Positions 7,345 through 14,505 of a stretch of 64,000 nucleotides of DNA are shown here, in pieces. Within the stretch, counting starts at the first letter, position 1, and each line of letters opens with the position of its first letter. Source of the stretch: Candidatus Fermentithermobacillaceae bacterium (GTDB taxonomy: Bacteria; Bacillota; Sulfobacillia; Fermentithermobacillales; Fermentithermobacillaceae); the NCBI GenBank assembly GCA_012841375.1, contig DUUV01000028.1:563-64562 (forward strand), read 5' to 3'. The translations under genes were made by a program, and so were the position numbers. Under the pieces are notes generated by a model. That model had not been told where the DNA came from and made no database searches. It worked only from the letters and a program-made list of their open reading frames with translations.

Positions 7345-9678
7345 CTACACGATCGCCCACAGCCCGGAGATGATTCCGGTGATGAAGAGCGTCGCGACCC
7401 AGTCTCTCCACGTGATCGCGAACGAGACCCGGTAAGTCCTGTCGCGGTAGAGCCCGAACGCCCGGCCCTCCATGGAGATCGTGAGGTTGTCCACCTTCTC
7501 CAGAGCCGATATCACCAGGGGCATGACTGTGTACTTGACGTAACGGGGGAGACTCTTTAGGCCGGCGGAGCCCACGTCAATTCCCTTGCTAAGCTGGGCG
7601 TTCCTCACCTGAACCATCTCGTATCCGAAGATCGGGATAAACCTTAAGGCCACAACCAGCATAAAGCCGTACCGGTAGGGGAGTCCTGCCTGCATTAGGG
7701 AGTAGGCCAGGTGGTTCGGGTCGGTGGTGACGACAAAAAGGAAACTGGTGAAGATGACGTTCAGGAACCGAAGGGCCAGGCCAATGCCTCTCACCAATCC
7801 CTGAGACCACACGACCACACTGACCCGGCCCAGAGAAAACAAAGGGATAGGCGTGCCTTGCTTGAAGAAGAACATCTGGGCCAGCAATACGGTGGCGGAA
7901 AACACCGTCAGGACCCTCAGCCTTCTGCGGAAGCGGTCGAACCCGGCACCGCTGAGAGCCGCCCCCAGCACCAGGGAGGCGGACAGCACGGCTTGGCGGG
8001 ATATCCCGGATGCGGAGAAAGCGAGCACGGTGATGAGGACGAGCAAGAAAGCCTTGCACAGCGGGTTCAACGAGTGGAGGAACGAATGGCCCGGCTGAAA
8101 GCCTAACACTCTGGGCGATATACCCGGACGAACACCGGCAGCGTTGTCAGCCGTGCGCCGGGAAGACTTGCTCCCAAGGCGTCCGTCCTCATCGAACTCG
8201 CTCTCGGAGTGGGCAGCGAACGGGGTGAACTCGTGCCTTCCCATCTCCCGGAGCGCTTCAAACGCCCGATCGGTGTCCGCATCGACCGCTACGCATCCGT
8301 CCTGGAGGAAAATGACTCTTGAACACATCGCTTGGACCAGCTCCGGATCATGGCAGACCATAAGGGTCGCCCCGCCTTGCCGGACGTGGGCCGCCAGTTC
8401 CTCCGCAATTGCACTCACCATATCAGGGTCCTGTCCCGTGAACGGTTCGTCCAGGAGCAGGAGCTTCCGGTCGTACACCAGGAGCGACGTCATGTTGAGG
8501 CGCTTCTTTTGCCCCATGCTGAGAGAGAAGGGACTTCTGTCCTCAAGCCCGGCCAGCCCGAACCTCTCCGTTATCTCCTGAAGTCTGCCGGAAGGGCTCT
8601 TTCCCAACCCTTCGGCCGTAAGCATGATCTCGCGGCTGACTGTGCTTTCAGACACCTGGTGATTAGGGTTCTGAAATGAGAGGCCCACAAACCCTGCCCG
8701 TTCCCGGACCGGCGTCCTCACAGCCTCTGCTCCGCCCAACGCGATAGAGCCGCCCGTCGGCTCAATGAGGCCCATGATCGTAGAAAGCAGGGTTGACTTG
8801 CCGCTCCCGTTATCGCCCATGAGAGCCACGATCTCGCCCGGCCGGATCTCGAGTGAGACATCCTGGAGCACTTGCCGCTGTCCGTACCCAGCGCACAGGT
8901 CCCTAATGGATAGAAGCGGCGGTCCCTGGCTTCCGGTCTCGTCTTTCGTCCGGACAATCCTCCCGGCAATCCGCCTGGCCGCCTGAACGAGGGGCCTGCC
9001 TTGCTCCTCGAAGACGTTCCCGTTCTCTACTCGTATCAGTCTGTCTGACAAGCGGGCGAGATGTCTCAGCCGGTGTTCCACGACCATTATCGCTGTGCCC
9101 GTCTTTTTCAGGGCGGATAGCGTGTCCAACACCGCCCGGGTACCTGACGGGTCGAGATTGGCCGTGGGTTCGTCCAAGACGATGACCTTGGGACGGAGGA
9201 CCAAAATGGAGGCTATGGCCACACGCTGCTTCTCACCGCCGGACAGGGAATAGACGTCTCTCTGGGCAAGGTGCTCCGCTCGGCAGGTCTTGAGCGCTTC
9301 CATGACCCTGCCCTCAATCTCCCGGGCAGGGACCTTCAGGTTTTCCAGGCCGAAGGCCACCTCGTCCATCACTGTCAGGGTGCAGAGCTGGGCTTCGGGA
9401 TCCTGGCGCACCATCCCGATGGTGCCCAAGAGTTGAACAGGGGAATGTGAGCGGGTATCCAGACCGCCGATCAAGACTTCGCCCGTCATCTCGCCGGCGA
9501 TGGAGTGGGGGATAAACCCTGCCATGGCCAAGCAAAGGGTGGACTTGCCGCCTCCGCTTGGCCCGGTTACGGTCGTGAACGACCCTTCGGACAGGGAGAG
9601 CGACACCCCCGACAGAGCGTGCCGTGTGCCGCCCCTGTAACGGAAGGACAAGTCCCTTATGTCTACCGCAACGTTCAC
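7345..9678 (-). CDS. Single-chain ECF module: two ATPase domains fused to an EcfT transmembrane domain
   Basis: NBD1 GPSGGGKST / LSGGEKQR / VLDEPT. NBD2 GDNGSGKST / LSMGQKKR / LLDEPF. C-terminal EcfT motifs LHSLNP..K, ALRFIP, NAQLSKG and SMEGRAF. Confidence 0.9.
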   Translation of the reverse strand: MNVAVDIRDLSFRYRGGTRHALSGVSLSLSEGSFTTVTGPSGGGKSTLCLAMAGFIPHSIAGEMTGEVLIGGLDTRSHSPVQLLGTIGMVRQDPEAQLCTLTVMDEVAFGLENLKVPAREIEGRVMEALKTCRAEHLAQRDVYSLSGGEKQRVAIASILVLRPKVIVLDEPTANLDPSGTRAVLDTLSALKKTGTAIMVVEHRLRHLARLSDRLIRVENGNVFEEQGRPLVQAARRIAGRIVRTKDETGSQGPPLLSIRDLCAGYGQRQVLQDVSLEIRPGEIVALMGDNGSGKSTLLSTIMGLIEPTGGSIALGGAEAVRTPVRERAGFVGLSFQNPNHQVSESTVSREIMLTAEGLGKSPSGRLQEITERFGLAGLEDRSPFSLSMGQKKRLNMTSLLVYDRKLLLLDEPFTGQDPDMVSAIAEELAAHVRQGGATLMVCHDPELVQAMCSRVIFLQDGCVAVDADTDRAFEALREMGRHEFTPFAAHSESEFDEDGRLGSKSSRRTADNAAGVRPGISPRVLGFQPGHSFLHSLNPLCKAFLLVLITVLAFSASGISRQAVLSASLVLGAALSGAGFDRFRRRLRVLTVFSATVLLAQMFFFKQGTPIPLFSLGRVSVVVWSQGLVRGIGLALRFLNVIFTSFLFVVTTDPNHLAYSLMQAGLPYRYGFMLVVALRFIPIFGYEMVQVRNAQLSKGIDVGSAGLKSLPRYVKYTVMPLVISALEKVDNLTISMEGRAFGLYRDRTYRVSFAITWRDWVATLFITGIISGLWAIV

Positions 9679-10709
9679 TTCACTACCAACTTGCTGACCT
9701 TCTGCACCCAGTATCCACCTTCGTAGTTTCCGGCAACCAGCCGCAAGGTATCTCCTTCTTCGATGATGATCATCCGGTCATCTGCCATCACGTCGGCAAG
9801 ATCAAAGTCAACCTGATAGCCATCGGATGCCACCACCGTCACGGTCTTTGACCCGGGCTTCGGGCCGGCCTCGCTCAAGATATCAGTGACAAGCACCCCC
9901 GTGTACTCCCTGGGGGCGACATAAGTGACCTGTCCTTTGAGCTCGGCAACTACGGTGACCTTTTCCAGCCTGGAGATGTCCACGGCGAGAGGTTTCTCCA
10001 CGTTGCCCTCCACGCCCAGCGCCGCGCCTTTCCAAGGGGCCTCATAGACATTAGTGAAGTAGTATCCTGCACCCACGGCCAACGCTACAGCCAAGGCCAG
10101 GGTGACATAACGGACTGACTTGGGCGAGGATGGGACCGAGACCGGGGCTTCCTGCATCATGCTGGGACGCACTTGGTGGACCGTTGTGAGCACCGAGTAA
10201 CCGAAGCCGCCGGCAAACAAAGCTCCCGACACCAGCGACAGAAAGGTGATGAACGCCAGGTAGCCCCATGGAGCCCCCGAGAAATACACCAACTGGAACA
10301 CAATGACGTTGGCGGCGGAGGCGATGGCGCCCCCTGTGATATAGGAGAGGACGCTGCGCCTTCTAGTACCCGCAAGCAAGAGGTCGACCACCAAACCCTG
10401 TACCAGTGACACTATGACGATGACAGACCCGTGGGTGCTGCCTGTAAGGAGTTCCACGGTGCCTTTGACCAACCCGCAAAGCGAACCTGCGCCGAAGGAC
10501 CGCACCAGTCCCGCCGCCAGCACTATCCAGAAGACATGGAGCCCGGATACGAACTGGCCCGCCCCGAACGGTACGCCGAGCAAGTTGTTCAGGAGAGTGC
10601 CAAGATAGCCCACATAGGTGCTCATGACCCCTCCCAGCCCGCTCAGGACTGCTATGATCAGGAGGTCTCTGGTGGAAAACCTGTACGGTTTCGCGGGTGC
10701 TGCTCTCAC
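9675..10709 (-). CDS. ECF S-component (YkoE-like) fused through an extra TM helix to an Oxidored_molyb-like (SUOX-fold) domain
   Basis: FSTRDLLIIAVL...GLHVFWIVLAAGLVR..GAG...VELLTG...SLVQGLVVDL fits the S-component pattern. The tail carries YTGV, ASDGY, LRLV and WVQKVSKLVV. GTGA overlaps on both sides. Confidence 0.78.
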   Translation of the reverse strand: MRAAPAKPYRFSTRDLLIIAVLSGLGGVMSTYVGYLGTLLNNLLGVPFGAGQFVSGLHVFWIVLAAGLVRSFGAGSLCGLVKGTVELLTGSTHGSVIVIVSLVQGLVVDLLLAGTRRRSVLSYITGGAIASAANVIVFQLVYFSGAPWGYLAFITFLSLVSGALFAGGFGYSVLTTVHQVRPSMMQEAPVSVPSSPKSVRYVTLALAVALAVGAGYYFTNVYEAPWKGAALGVEGNVEKPLAVDISRLEKVTVVAELKGQVTYVAPREYTGVLVTDILSEAGPKPGSKTVTVVASDGYQVDFDLADVMADDRMIIIEEGDTLRLVAGNYEGGYWVQKVSKLVVK

Positions 10710-12358
10710 CTCGGTCTCACCTCCAGTCTGACCACGTTCTTAACCCATCTGGCGCCGGCCGATTCATATATGCCCCAGCCTTGACCTTCGACTGACGTAC
10801 CGGCGCAATCATCATTGCTGTAGACTCCGTCCGGCGGAAAGAAAGCGATCCTGTAGCCTTCCTGCCAATCGGGCGGCGTCTTTCCATCCGCGCTGAGGGC
10901 CACTATCATGTCACCCTGGATCTCAAGCCATGAGTCGTCGGGGAACACGTTCCGGTACGAGAATTCCTGAGCGTACCCGTCGGACGCGTAAACCACCAGG
11001 GTATCGGACTCTTCCATCCCGCCTACAAGGTCCAGGAGCACTCTCACCGGCACTCCACGATACAGCCTCTCGGCGCTCAGGTTCTCATAGCGGTTTTGAT
11101 ACTTGACCTTTGCTTCCCGCGTTTCGAGTCCCGAAAGCTCTTCCAGTGAGAGGAGCATCTCTCCGCCTTTGCCGCTGAGCACCAGATCATCGCTTGCGTA
11201 ACCGGCAGGCTTCTCGACAGGGGTGACCGTTATCCCGGCGGGTGTGGCCTCTACCACGGCAAAGTGATGGAAGCCGCCATCCTGGGGAGAGGCGTAGAGA
11301 CCAGCGCCGCCTCCACCGCTGGTAACGAACGTCACGCCTTCGACTGCGTTCTGGCTGAACATGTGGACGTGGCCGTTGAAGACGGCTTTGACCACGTTCT
11401 CAGGGTCGGTCAACACATCCAAAAGGGAAGCGGCCTCAACCTGGTCCAAGAAGCAGTGGTCTTCGCCCCGGGGGTCAAAGGGCGGCACGTGCATGAACAC
11501 GAGCTTGGGTGACCCCGACGCCCCCAGCGTCTCACGAAGCCAGGAAAGCCCCTCGGGACCGAGTCCCAGGGAGGAGGTATCCAGGAAAACCACTCTCCAT
11601 CCCGCGTAGTCAAAGTAGCGGTTGGGCTGACCAAATCTCGCCTGAAAGAGATCACTGTCAGAATCCCTGACATCGTGGTTTCCCGGAACCGCGAAGCACG
11701 GGACGCCAAGAGCCGAGAGCGCCTCATCGAACGCCTCGAACTCCCGCGAAGCGCCCGATGGGGTCATATCGCCCAGGTGCACAAGGAATTCCGCTTCGGA
11801 TTCGTTGATCAGTGGGACCATACTGCTAAAAACATTGTTTCGTCCCTGGGTGTCGCCTATGACCGCGAAGCGCAGCGGCTCTGTCTCTTGAGGCGTGGTT
11901 TCAAGGATGATCCTCCCGGAGCCCCTTTTCACCAAAACTTCCATGGAGGTGGGGGAGAGCCTCTTGGTTTCGATCACGGGCTCCGCGCCGGGTCGGTTCG
12001 AGCCTGCCTCAGGGCCATGAACCTCTATCGAGACAGCATCCGCCCTGATGTTCAATACCGATATGGTGAACGTCCGCCTGTCCGACGGGTCTCTCTCCAG
12101 ATCGACGCGAAGCGTCGTGGACAGCGCCTTCACAACGGCACTATCACGGGTCACACTTTGGGCCAAGCCTCCTGTCACGGACAGTTTGGGATCGGGGAGA
12201 TCCTTGCAGCCCGAGAGGCCGGCGGCCAAGACAAGGATAGCCAGGACCGTCCAAGCCGCCACCAGGGGCTGCGCCCCGTAGAACCGCCTGAAAGGACTCA
12301 AGCGAGTCCGGCGAGGTCTCACGGCTCGCGCCCGCGATGCTTTGGGAAAGATGGTCAT
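10706..12358 (-). CDS. Lipoprotein: calcineurin-like metallophosphoesterase fused to a C-terminal Oxidored_molyb-like domain
   Basis: Lipobox LSGC. Phosphoesterase motifs GDTQG, HLGD, GNHD, FMH and GHVH. C-terminal YRGVPV, ASDGY, YRIAF and WVKNVVRLEV. Confidence 0.82.
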   Translation of the reverse strand: MTIFPKASRARAVRPRRTRLSPFRRFYGAQPLVAAWTVLAILVLAAGLSGCKDLPDPKLSVTGGLAQSVTRDSAVVKALSTTLRVDLERDPSDRRTFTISVLNIRADAVSIEVHGPEAGSNRPGAEPVIETKRLSPTSMEVLVKRGSGRIILETTPQETEPLRFAVIGDTQGRNNVFSSMVPLINESEAEFLVHLGDMTPSGASREFEAFDEALSALGVPCFAVPGNHDVRDSDSDLFQARFGQPNRYFDYAGWRVVFLDTSSLGLGPEGLSWLRETLGASGSPKLVFMHVPPFDPRGEDHCFLDQVEAASLLDVLTDPENVVKAVFNGHVHMFSQNAVEGVTFVTSGGGGAGLYASPQDGGFHHFAVVEATPAGITVTPVEKPAGYASDDLVLSGKGGEMLLSLEELSGLETREAKVKYQNRYENLSAERLYRGVPVRVLLDLVGGMEESDTLVVYASDGYAQEFSYRNVFPDDSWLEIQGDMIVALSADGKTPPDWQEGYRIAFFPPDGVYSNDDCAGTSVEGQGWGIYESAGARWVKNVVRLEVRPR

Positions 12359-12448: not shown

Positions 12449-13465
12449 TTATTCCGGCAGGTTCACCAGTCTGATCTCGGCAATCTGCTTAACCCCGTGC
12501 TTCTTGCTGGGCAAGCCGGAACCGACCAATCTGAGGGGGCCTTCATCCTCGCCCAGAGGTTTCCCGTCGACTTTGTAGGCAACGATGATGTCCGCGTTGT
12601 AGGCAACCTCCTGGGAAGTGAATTCGACAGTCATGCCGTCTGCCGCGACCACCTCAATGGTGTAGCCCTTGTCTGCCAGACCTTTGTTGAAGAGGTAATG
12701 CCCTCCTTCGGCATCGCCACCGTCGAACATGGATATGACGAGCCAGAGGGGCACCCCCTCATAGACGATAGCGTCGCCTTCTTTGGTCGTCGTCTCAAAT
12801 GTCGCGGCAGGATGGGGAGTATCGGGGCATTCGGCCATGCTTTCGAAGCTCGAGCGGTCCAGCCCAACCGACTCCACTCCGGTCAGGGCGATCTCCCAAT
12901 CCGACAGCCCCTCAACCACAGTCAACTCGGCGACGGACTTTACCCAGAAGTGTCCGTCAGAGACGGCTCCATCGGGCGAAGAGAACCCGAGCCTGGGAAG
13001 CTCGGACGAGAATAGATCGCCGTCGCTGGATGTGATCAACATGGTGTCGAGGTCTGTCACCTTGAGGGCCTGGCCGTCTTCACCGTAGACCATGAGAAGT
13101 CCCTTGACCTGCTCATATGTGAGGGTCATCGTGTAGCCGTCGGATGCGGTGACGGCCAGAGCGTCGTCCTCGGTGAAGCCGCCTGCCTTCTCAAGGACTT
13201 CGTCGATGCTTACGCCCGAGAACGTGTCGGGACCGACAATGGTGCCCGTGGTCTTTATGAAACCACCTTTGCCGTCTTTAACCTCAAGAGAAGAAAGGTC
13301 GATTTCGTGGGAAGTACCGTCCCTGGCGACAACCCGAACAGAGTAGGACGGCGATGCCGGGGGATCGGGCGGCGTGGGATTGGCCTCACCGCAGGCCGCC
13401 AGAAGAACCATGGACAACACGAGGGCTAAGCCCAAGAAAACCGGTGTTCTTCGCTTCAAGCTCAC
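12449..13465 (-). CDS. Lipoprotein with two tandem Oxidored_molyb-like (SUOX-fold) domains
   Basis: GGAGG RBS before GTG 13465 and lipobox LAAC. Domain 1: FSGV, ASDGY, PRLG, WVKSVAEL. Domain 2: YEGVPL, AADG, GPLRLV, GVKQIAEI. Confidence 0.8.
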   Translation of the reverse strand: MSLKRRTPVFLGLALVLSMVLLAACGEANPTPPDPPASPSYSVRVVARDGTSHEIDLSSLEVKDGKGGFIKTTGTIVGPDTFSGVSIDEVLEKAGGFTEDDALAVTASDGYTMTLTYEQVKGLLMVYGEDGQALKVTDLDTMLITSSDGDLFSSELPRLGFSSPDGAVSDGHFWVKSVAELTVVEGLSDWEIALTGVESVGLDRSSFESMAECPDTPHPAATFETTTKEGDAIVYEGVPLWLVISMFDGGDAEGGHYLFNKGLADKGYTIEVVAADGMTVEFTSQEVAYNADIIVAYKVDGKPLGEDEGPLRLVGSGLPSKKHGVKQIAEIRLVNLPE

Positions 13466-13534
13466 ATACACCTCCGTGTGAAAGTAACCGATCTTTGATA
13501 GGAGCATGGGGCCATTGTGTAGTAGCCGGTAGGG

Positions 13535-13564
13535 TCATCCATACGGAGGCACACCAATACGCAT
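13535..13564 (-). other. Possible 9-codon leader ORF (MRIGVPPYG*) behind the riboswitch Shine-Dalgarno
   Basis: GGAAAGGAG-tggttcaa-ATG CGT ATT GGT GTG CCT CCG TAT GGA TGA on the minus strand. Confidence 0.35.
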
Positions 13565-13571
13565 TTGAACC

Positions 13572-13667
13572 ACTCCTTTCCAAATACGGGAGGCCCAGGC
13601 GTTTCCGCCAAGACCCTATCGGCCGCCCCGCCGTGGCCCTACTGCTTTAGGCAAGACGGCTCGGAGT
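13572..13667 (-). ncRNA. Moco/Tuco riboswitch (Moco RNA motif), P3-less variant
   Basis: ACUCCGA-GCCGUCUUGC-CUAA..-GCGGGGCGGC-CGAU-AGGGU..GGCG GAAA CGCC..GCCUCCCGUAUUUGGAAAGGAGU. P1 ACUCC/GGAGU, a fully paired 10-bp P2, a GNRA-capped P4, and the hallmark CCUCCCGUAUUUGGAAAGG 3' tract. Confidence 0.88.
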
Positions 13668-13803
13668 CGCGCCTCATTGTTTCGACACCGGGAGCGCGAA
13701 ATCCTTCGGAGGAAAGCGGGTTCATGCTGTGCAGCGTACCGGTGATTACCGTCATGTAGCAGGGCTGTATTAGCCGTTCGCCCCGCCGGCCTCCGCCCAA
13801 ACT

Positions 13804-14307
13804 CTAGGGAGCGCCGTCGTCTCCGTGTAACCCAGGGAACGCTCCCGCGCGGTACCTGCCATCCTCTCTCAAGATGCTGAGAAGAGCTTTCTCGGCGTCG
13901 CTCAGTGTCAGGCAGTCTTCGGGAAGGGGGAGGAGCTCGGGGATCTCCAACACCTCTTCGCCGTCCCGGGTCGCCTTGCGCGCGAGGCCCAAGTCAACCA
14001 GCAGTTTGACTATTCCCCGGAGGCTCTTCCGGTACGGTTTCCCGTACTCTTCGGCGAACCGCCGTTCCACGTCCTCTTTGGCGCAAGCCTGTCTCGGGTC
14101 GGGTGTGTAGTTCTTGGCCTCGGCGTGCCACCTTTCGAGCCATTTCCACATTTCCTCCCCCTTGCAGCCCGACCAGCCCAGAATGGCAATGGATGTGAAG
14201 GTCACCCCGGCTTCGGCCGGAAGGTGCCGGTGCCACCCGAGCCCAAGAAATTGGCGCACTTGGGGCAAAGACGTCCACATGGTAGCGTTTTTCTCCTCTT
14301 CGTACAT
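13804..14307 (-). CDS. Hypothetical protein (weak resemblance to DUF6042 or winged-helix proteins)
   Basis: GAGGTG RBS before ATG 14307. Contains GWHRHLP, LVDLGL and IPELLPLPEDCL. Confidence 0.55.
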   Translation of the reverse strand: MYEEEKNATMWTSLPQVRQFLGLGWHRHLPAEAGVTFTSIAILGWSGCKGEEMWKWLERWHAEAKNYTPDPRQACAKEDVERRFAEEYGKPYRKSLRGIVKLLVDLGLARKATRDGEEVLEIPELLPLPEDCLTLSDAEKALLSILREDGRYRAGAFPGLHGDDGAP

Positions 14308-14505
14308 CCTGATCACCTCAGAGGACCCGTTCGCCGCACCCAATGGGAATTCCTGCCAATTAAGACAGAAAGTTGTCGGGGAAGCTGTCTTTTCGCGGTG
14401 CCGTGGACTTACGCAGGACTGAGCCCGGTCCGGTCAGAATCCATCCTTGGATGCGGGAGGCCATCTTCCTCTGAGTGCGCATAACGTCTAGTAGGCATCT
14501 CTTAA

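Follow-up and report, generated by a model that had tools for sequence, protein, structure and literature searches.

A P3-less molybdenum/tungsten-cofactor riboswitch in the leader of an ECF importer operon, in a bacterium apparently without its own cofactor supply

The 64-kb stretch of a Candidatus Fermentithermobacillaceae contig analysed here (the window) carries, in the 5′ leader of an operon for an energy-coupling factor (ECF) importer, a genuine Mo/W-cofactor riboswitch of the known P3-less form, ordinary as an RNA. We think it probable that this RNA works as a P3-less Moco-family (Tuco/Wco) OFF switch on an importer of a metal-loaded pterin, most probably the tungsten form. The P3-less subclass has been known since 2008, and the interest of this example lies in its target and in its auxotrophic setting: the gene content of the genome narrows the ligand of the P3-less class, long unproven, to a metal-loaded pterin.

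The only Rfam match in the window (cmscan, Rfam 15) is to RF01055, the Molybdenum/Tungsten riboswitch aptamer (Moco RNA motif), at 13557–13678 on the minus strand. It covers model positions 1–135, the full length without truncation, reaches 79.5 bits, where the gathering score is 36 (E = 1.3e-17), and is the one RF01055 match in the whole genome. The core aptamer, from the 5′ to the 3′ strand of P1, spans 13572–13667 (minus strand), as delimited by the sequence, the cmscan structure and covariation in 24 relatives. P1 pairs ACUCC (13667–13663) with GGAGU (13576–13572), P2 pairs 13660–13650 with 13632–13622, P4 pairs 13616–13606 with 13601–13591 around a GAAA tetraloop (13605–13602), and P5 pairs CC (13590–13589) with GG (13581–13580). 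In the cmscan alignment these four helices are intact and every model position of the P3 hairpin is deleted, so that only five bases, C-G-A-U-A (13621–13617), stand in place of P3 between the 3′ strand of P2, GGCGGGGCGGC (13632–13622), and P4, GGGUCUUGGCG (13616–13606). The conserved core nucleotides are all present (CUCCGAG, the CCUAA bulge, AGGG, the GAAA tetraloop, CCUCCC and GGAAAGGAG), the 3′ strand of P1 is the conserved GGAAAGGAGU, and the tetraloop-receptor half reads CACGG, not UAUGG. A reading made earlier from the letters of the window (the sequence-only reading) had assigned the RNA to the P3-less form, and the RF01055 alignment, in which no P3 element is seen, bears this out. That reading had also placed the P2 strands correctly, GCCGUCUUGC at 13660–13651 and GCGGGGCGGC at 13631–13622, which form ten pairs, three of them G-U, and the limits that it gave, 13572 and 13667, are the exact outer ends of core P1.

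The fold is well supported by related RNAs. We collected 80 loci, each coding relatives of the operon's S component (PF09819), and aligned 24 leader RNAs from them. RNAalifold recovered P1, P2, P4 and P5 from these 24 RNAs, and no P3; by pair count, 96.8% of the paired cells hold a pair, and compensatory changes were seen at 18 of the 26 pairs. The covariation score was 0.55, compared with 0.20 for shuffles and at most 0.13 with slid partners. Because pairing and compensatory changes lie far above both controls, the aptamer fold is not due to chance. In Pelotomaculum-type copies, for example, P1 has become UUUUC/GAAAA and the base of P4 has changed from GGG/CCU to GAG/CUU, both compensated. 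The RNAs of L036, L046 and L047 (Pelotomaculum, Desulfotomaculaceae) have AGAGU for AGGGU and CUUCCC for CCUCCC, again compensated, and have lost the conserved Shine–Dalgarno (SD)-like GGAG of P1. Run over the 80 loci, a covariance model of the 24 RNAs found 33 Moco RNAs, all of 105–129 nt and all P3-less. At about 20 bacterial loci the first gene of the operon has the RNA directly 5′ of it; an equivalent RNA is found at the equivalent position in about 20 more remote loci as well as in the relatives L009, L128 and L132.

Downstream of the RNA, four co-oriented minus-strand genes make up the ECF importer operon. Gene A (12449–13459, from the ORF list) encodes an exported protein with an Oxidored_molyb (sulfite-oxidase-fold) domain (PF00174, 39 bits), and its likely start, judged by homology with L009, L128 and L132, is a TTG at 13459 or a GTG at 13465. 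Gene B (10706–12358) encodes an exported calcineurin-like metallophosphoesterase (PF00149, 58.6 bits). Gene C (9675–10709), which has more than 320 homologues, joins an ECF S component (PF09819) to an Oxidored_molyb domain, and gene D (7345–9678) is a fused ECF ATPase–ATPase–T component (Pfam ABC_tran twice plus CbiQ; NCBIfam ECF ATPase, 317 bits). As in a Group I (dedicated) ECF system, one locus encodes the S component, both ATPase domains and the T component, and the operon's Oxidored_molyb-domain proteins, three by the Pfam search, place the RNA in a Mo/W-cofactor context. In the relatives L040, L036 and L025, neighbouring P3-less RNAs precede TupA-like tungstate-binding genes that adjoin the ECF operon. 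The A/B-C-D operon also occurs in Thermoplasmata and Asgard archaeal MAGs (L065–L087, 40–47% identity), and at these archaeal homologues among the 80 loci the covariance model found no Moco RNA. In the window a DUF6042 gene of like orientation (13804–14343, minus) directly adjoins the riboswitch on its upstream side, and so does one in a relative with 88% identity (L132:1343-1852). When Regulski et al. described the P3-less RNAs in 2008, two of them, standing before 'sulfite oxidase' genes of Syntrophomonas wolfei, were listed as unexplained exceptions (PMC2408646). These genes probably belong to the ECF operon family of the window, which is common in Syntrophomonadaceae; the 'exception' would thereby be linked to a widespread ECF uptake operon.

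Gene A starts about 110 nt past the aptamer, behind the GGAGG (13475–13471) of its SD region ACGGAGGUGUAU (13466–13477, minus strand), and a GGAGG followed by a TTG start is found in L009, L128 and L132 too. We found no terminator in 13000–14200, the leader region, and rejected an intrinsic-terminator platform for the window on that ground; no sigma-70-like promoter was found around the riboswitch. Many relatives have a terminator just 3′ of the aptamer, so platforms differ between lineages, and since the leader of the window has none, control is probably translational. As judged from the sequence, the likely route is a candidate sequestor of the ribosome-binding site (RBS), GGUGUGCCUCCGU (13543–13555, minus strand), whose anti-SD CCUCC (13549–13545) would pair with the GGAGG of gene A. 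Minimum-energy folds of the window, L009 and L128 pair GGUGUGCCUCCGU (13555–13543) with the SD region (13477–13466), that of L132 does not, and the leader fold energies are no better than those of shuffles. In constrained folding, with P1 either forced or blocked, the accessibility of the SD shifted clearly in the window (0.00 against 0.22–0.35); L009, L128 and L132 showed no clear change. An antisequestor formed by the 3′ strand of P1 and CCUCC was not supported, merely 4 bp being possible by inspection.

A second feature of the leader is an AUG (13564–13562) that stands 8 nt past the GGAG of P1 and opens a nine-codon frame, MRIGVPPYG, ending in UGA at 13537–13535 (13535–13564 in all, minus strand). 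AUG, UUG or GUG is found 6–9 nt from the GGAG in L009, L128, L132 and L011. L009 retains the nine-codon frame (MCIGVPPYG) with mostly silent changes, and L011 has MSKPKPPT there; a conserved leader peptide was rejected, as L128 has no more than AUG-UAA and the frame of L132 is long and different. Given that the peptide varies among relatives, we retained only the position of the start codon as a feature, a possible riboswitch-gated site of ribosome loading. The frame in the window includes Pro-Pro and runs over the anti-SD CCUCC.

Put together as a mechanism, plentiful intracellular metal-pterin would bind the aptamer and close P1, and expression of the importer would fall. Control would be exerted at translation, through the pairing of CCUCC with GGAGG, in one of two ways. 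The element might be a plain RBS sequestor whose formation is set by the state of the aptamer. Alternatively, a relay may act through the start codon behind the SD-like GGAG of P1: with little ligand about, ribosomes might enter at this P1-gated AUG and unwind the sequestor.

What the importer carries is suggested by the rest of the genome (2.37 Mb in 157 contigs, 97.8% complete, a draft in which absences are not absolute). It encodes three AOR-family proteins that score 374–463 bits over the full length against solved AOR/FOR structures. Their nearest solved relatives are 8c0z and 9q1t, named tungsten enzymes in their PDB titles, and 1aor and 1b25, which are Pyrococcus tungstoenzymes. The DMSO-reductase family is represented in the genome by a single gene, for a formate dehydrogenase (FDH) alpha subunit (TIGR01591, 912 bits); its open frame is of the Cys type and its N-terminus NuoG-like, and directly behind it lies MobA, the one cofactor-maturation gene kept (L005:216-3849, contig C20). 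Searches of the genome found no xanthine-dehydrogenase (XDH)-family gene, no MoaC or MoeA, no TupA (the sole match to PF12849, PBP_like_2, is PstS, and NF041772 has no match) and no ModA/WtpA (TIGR01256, no match). In addition, relatives' proteins from gene clusters under riboswitch control served as tblastn queries (MoeA of two types, MoaA, MoaC, MoaB/MOSC, TupA, TupB and ModA); no orthologue of these was detected, the sole matches being weak radical-SAM-core ones to MoaA.

By sequence family, then, every pterin enzyme found is tungsten-compatible, and the genome reads as that of an organism that uses tungsten-type enzymes but has no cofactor supply of its own. MobA and the pterin enzymes allow the cell to put a metal-pterin cofactor to use and to turn it into the dinucleotide; with no genes for pterin synthesis, metal insertion or oxyanion uptake, import of the finished, metal-loaded cofactor is the simplest reading. 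For the same reasons, an imported and already metal-loaded pterin, most probably in its tungsten form, is the most likely ligand, and the riboswitch would report its level.

Similar genotypes recur among relatives. Across 50 operon-bearing genomes, mostly draft MAGs, MoaC is present in 41 and absent from 9, and TupA-like genes occur in 38. Most of these organisms make the cofactor, so the importer supplements synthesis there. Seven genomes lack MoaC, TupA-like and ModA genes together: that of the window (G000), its closest relative (G001), and G003, G020, G029, G033 and G034. TupA-like and ModA genes are both absent from seven of the nine MoaC-negative genomes, compared with two of the 41 MoaC-positive ones (Fisher p = 1.2e-5). 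XDH-family enzymes need molybdenum, and the family is absent from five of the seven triple-negative genomes; the single such gene in each of G001 and G029 cautions against a strictly tungsten-only cargo, although MAG contamination is also possible. We suggest, tentatively, that the RNA of the window is the sensor of an obligate scavenger living on its neighbours' tungsten cofactor, and that the operon encodes the first known importer for the finished cofactor, no ECF or other importer for a Mo/W cofactor having been found described in the literature searched. If this is true, tungstopterin is a traded 'vitamin' in anaerobic communities.

The absence of P3 has itself been read as a sign of tungsten. 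In the survey of 2008, 58 of 176 Moco RNAs were without P3, 17 of 19 organisms with P3-less RNAs had tupA or wtpA, and sensing of the tungsten cofactor (Tuco) was proposed (PMC2408646). We searched our 50 genomes for RF01055 and obtained 235 matches in 47 of them, with up to 18 per genome, and took the lengths of the best 150 of these 235 RNAs. Of these, 137 measure 115–128 nt. The 13 longer ones, read in the alignment, comprise eight with a P3 hairpin (L118, L119, L120, L121, weakly, L122, L124, L126 and L133), four P3-less RNAs with insertions in P2, and one ambiguous case. P3 is thus absent in about 94% of the best 150 of the 235 RNAs, and its absence is the default in these lineages. Against such a background, an ECF-linked set that is entirely P3-less barely discriminates on the metal; we rejected this uniformity as evidence for tungsten. 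Annotators should not take P3 absence in these Firmicutes as proof of tungsten specificity.

The genes that follow the listed RNAs show a trend in the published direction. A listed RNA adjoins 16 TupA-like genes (called at 170–262 bits, under the strict NCBIfam cut-off of 400); it is P3-less at 14 of them and P3-bearing at two (G037 and G045). The ModA-family genes number four, of which the two high-scoring (172 and 198 bits) have P3-bearing RNAs and the two low-scoring (85 and 114 bits; G008 and G014) have P3-less RNAs. The resulting 14:2 versus 2:2 is not significant (Fisher p = 0.16). G037 and G045 hold both forms: their tupA-like genes have the P3-bearing RNA, their ECF operon the P3-less one. 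This argues against the two forms being interchangeable, yet the simple rule does not account for it. Otherwise P3-less listed RNAs precede varied targets, including Moa/MoeA genes, FDH, hydrogenase, aldehyde dehydrogenase and transporters.

This survey and the gene content together qualify what the sequence-only reading had proposed, namely that the operon's cargo may be tungstopterin in an anaerobe with W-dependent enzymes. It was right that the literature proposes sensing of tungsten cofactor by the P3-less form (PMC2408646; PMC11725836), and the enzymes that it looked for are there, in the three AOR-family genes and the FDH with MobA. The tupABC/wtpABC genes to which it also pointed are missing, with no TupA, TupB, ModA or WtpA in the genome; their absence fits import of the finished cofactor, yet it removes the marker behind the published correlation. 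The tungsten reading accordingly stands in part: the link of the subclass to Tuco and the tungsten-type enzymes speak for it, whereas the lack of tup/wtp and the high background of P3 absence weaken it. Tungsten specificity of the RNA is plausible, though unproven.

Several other arrangements came to light in the same genomes. Syntrophomonadaceae-type genomes (G015, G014, G017 and G024) have 12–18 Moco RNAs each, and some RNAs occur as tandem pairs, for example at G012:C1:1202118-1202462 and G017:C28:14426-14739. In L141 (G048:C33:80500-91300), one P3-less RNA precedes MoeA, MoeA(PRK14498), MoaA, MoaC and MOSC/MoaB, and a second precedes tupA-like, tupB and ATPase genes, which makes a compact riboswitch-controlled supply cluster. 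NAD-dependent aldehyde dehydrogenases (PF00171) follow Moco RNAs at L126:1642-3300 and L136:2147-3787 (both minus strand); the L126 enzyme matches TIGR01237 at 722 bits and its RNA is P3-bearing (G045), and the G003 RNA measures 119 nt. Such a dehydrogenase may stand in for AOR without needing the cofactor, and be repressed while cofactor is at hand. Operons of FecCD permease, ABC ATPase and Peripla_BP_2 genes follow Moco RNAs at L139:425-3353 and L122:540-3781 and are of the type described as 'iron transporters' under the Tuco riboswitches of Eubacterium limosum. As G033 is without MoaC, TupA and ModA, the FecCD system could be a second cofactor-related importer and not an iron system. Small solitary ECF S components (PF12822) follow P3-less Moco RNAs at L016:13257-14037 and L138:2484-2963; in Anoxynatronum a PF12822 S component lies just 3′ of ECF ATPase/T genes, and in G020 one follows a riboswitch-controlled [FeFe]-hydrogenase.

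In vitro binding has been demonstrated for no Moco RNA, even that of E. coli, the ligand being unstable (PMC2408646). The most serious alternative to our preferred reading, one we consider possible but rather unlikely, is that the P3-less aptamer represses the importer without regard to the metal, Mo or W, so that the cargo could be Moco, Wco or both, and that P3 absence is a lineage trait of anaerobic Firmicutes and does not determine specificity. The predominance of P3-less RNAs whatever their target would follow from it, and so would the exceptions in both directions, with P3-bearing RNAs before TupA-like genes in G037 and G045 and P3-less RNAs before ModA-family genes in G008 and G014. The scavenger genomes G001 and G029, with their Mo-needing XDH-family genes, also suit it, and deletion of P3 from the E. 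coli RNA abolished regulation and did not switch specificity (PMC2408646). A metal-blind aptamer sits less easily with the placing of the two forms on different operons in G037 and G045, which suggests that they are not equivalent, or with the P3-bearing RNAs of the high-scoring ModA genes. Moreover, the P3-bearing RNA of E. coli ignores tungstate (PMC2408646), the P3-less RNAs of E. limosum respond to tungsten limitation (PMC11725836), and the genome of the window has tungsten-compatible enzyme families only.

A second alternative, that both the ligand of the riboswitch and the cargo of the operon are a pterin precursor without metal (cPMP, molybdopterin or a breakdown product), is improbable. 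The operon's surface phosphoesterase could trim a phosphorylated or dinucleotide precursor, and in the majority of operon genomes, which keep MoaC and a TupA-like gene, the operon supplements synthesis; but the genome of the window has no MoeA, MogA/MoaB or tungstate/molybdate transporter, and with neither a metal-inserting enzyme nor an oxyanion transporter a metal-free import would be useless to it. Repression in E. coli, furthermore, needs molybdate and MoeA-dependent steps (PMC2408646), which points to the metal-loaded form as ligand. It is scarcely credible that the RNA resembles the family by chance, or as a decayed remnant, and regulates nothing: the lack of a recognizable sigma-70-like promoter or terminator around it might be taken that way, but the E value, the complete set of conserved nucleotides, the compensatory changes and the conserved position in close and distant relatives all speak against it.

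Regulation of this kind would have familiar counterparts. Vitamin riboswitches stand on ECF or ABC importers, as do the TPP riboswitch with ThiT/YkoEDC, the FMN riboswitch with RibU and the cobalamin riboswitch with BtuFCD. The logic is the same, in that a coenzyme-sensing RNA represses the importer of that coenzyme, typically in auxotrophs; here, however, we infer the cargo from the genome, and no Mo/W-cofactor importer is at hand in the literature searched for comparison. With the Tuco RNAs of 2008 the RNA of the window shares P1, P2 with its tetraloop-receptor bulge, P4 with a GAAA loop, P5, the lack of P3 and the same conserved nucleotides (PMC2408646). It differs from them in that its organism has neither the tupA/wtpA markers nor cofactor synthesis, and in that its target is an ECF importer and not biosynthesis genes, an oxyanion transporter or an enzyme.

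The Tuco RNAs of E. limosum, described in 2024, are likewise P3-less members of RF01055 in a Firmicute with AOR-type tungstoenzymes (PMC11725836). Five of them precede WOR1, tupABC, two FecCD-type transporters and focA, and those of the terminator type are derepressed in vivo under tungsten limitation (PMC11725836). Some use RBS sequestors and not terminators, as the candidate sequestor of the window would (PMC11725836). Cofactor synthesis and tungstate uptake by TupABC, both found in E. limosum, are missing from the genome of the window; for E. limosum no ECF operon was reported, and it was there that the response to tungsten limitation was measured (PMC11725836). The moaA Moco riboswitch of E. 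coli belongs to the same family and has the same OFF logic, and in both RNAs the 3′ strand of P1 is an SD-like GGAG. The moaA RNA, however, has P3, controls biosynthesis and is indifferent to tungstate, and the only frame that the GGAG of P1 serves in the window is the nine-codon one, the gene itself starting farther down the leader.
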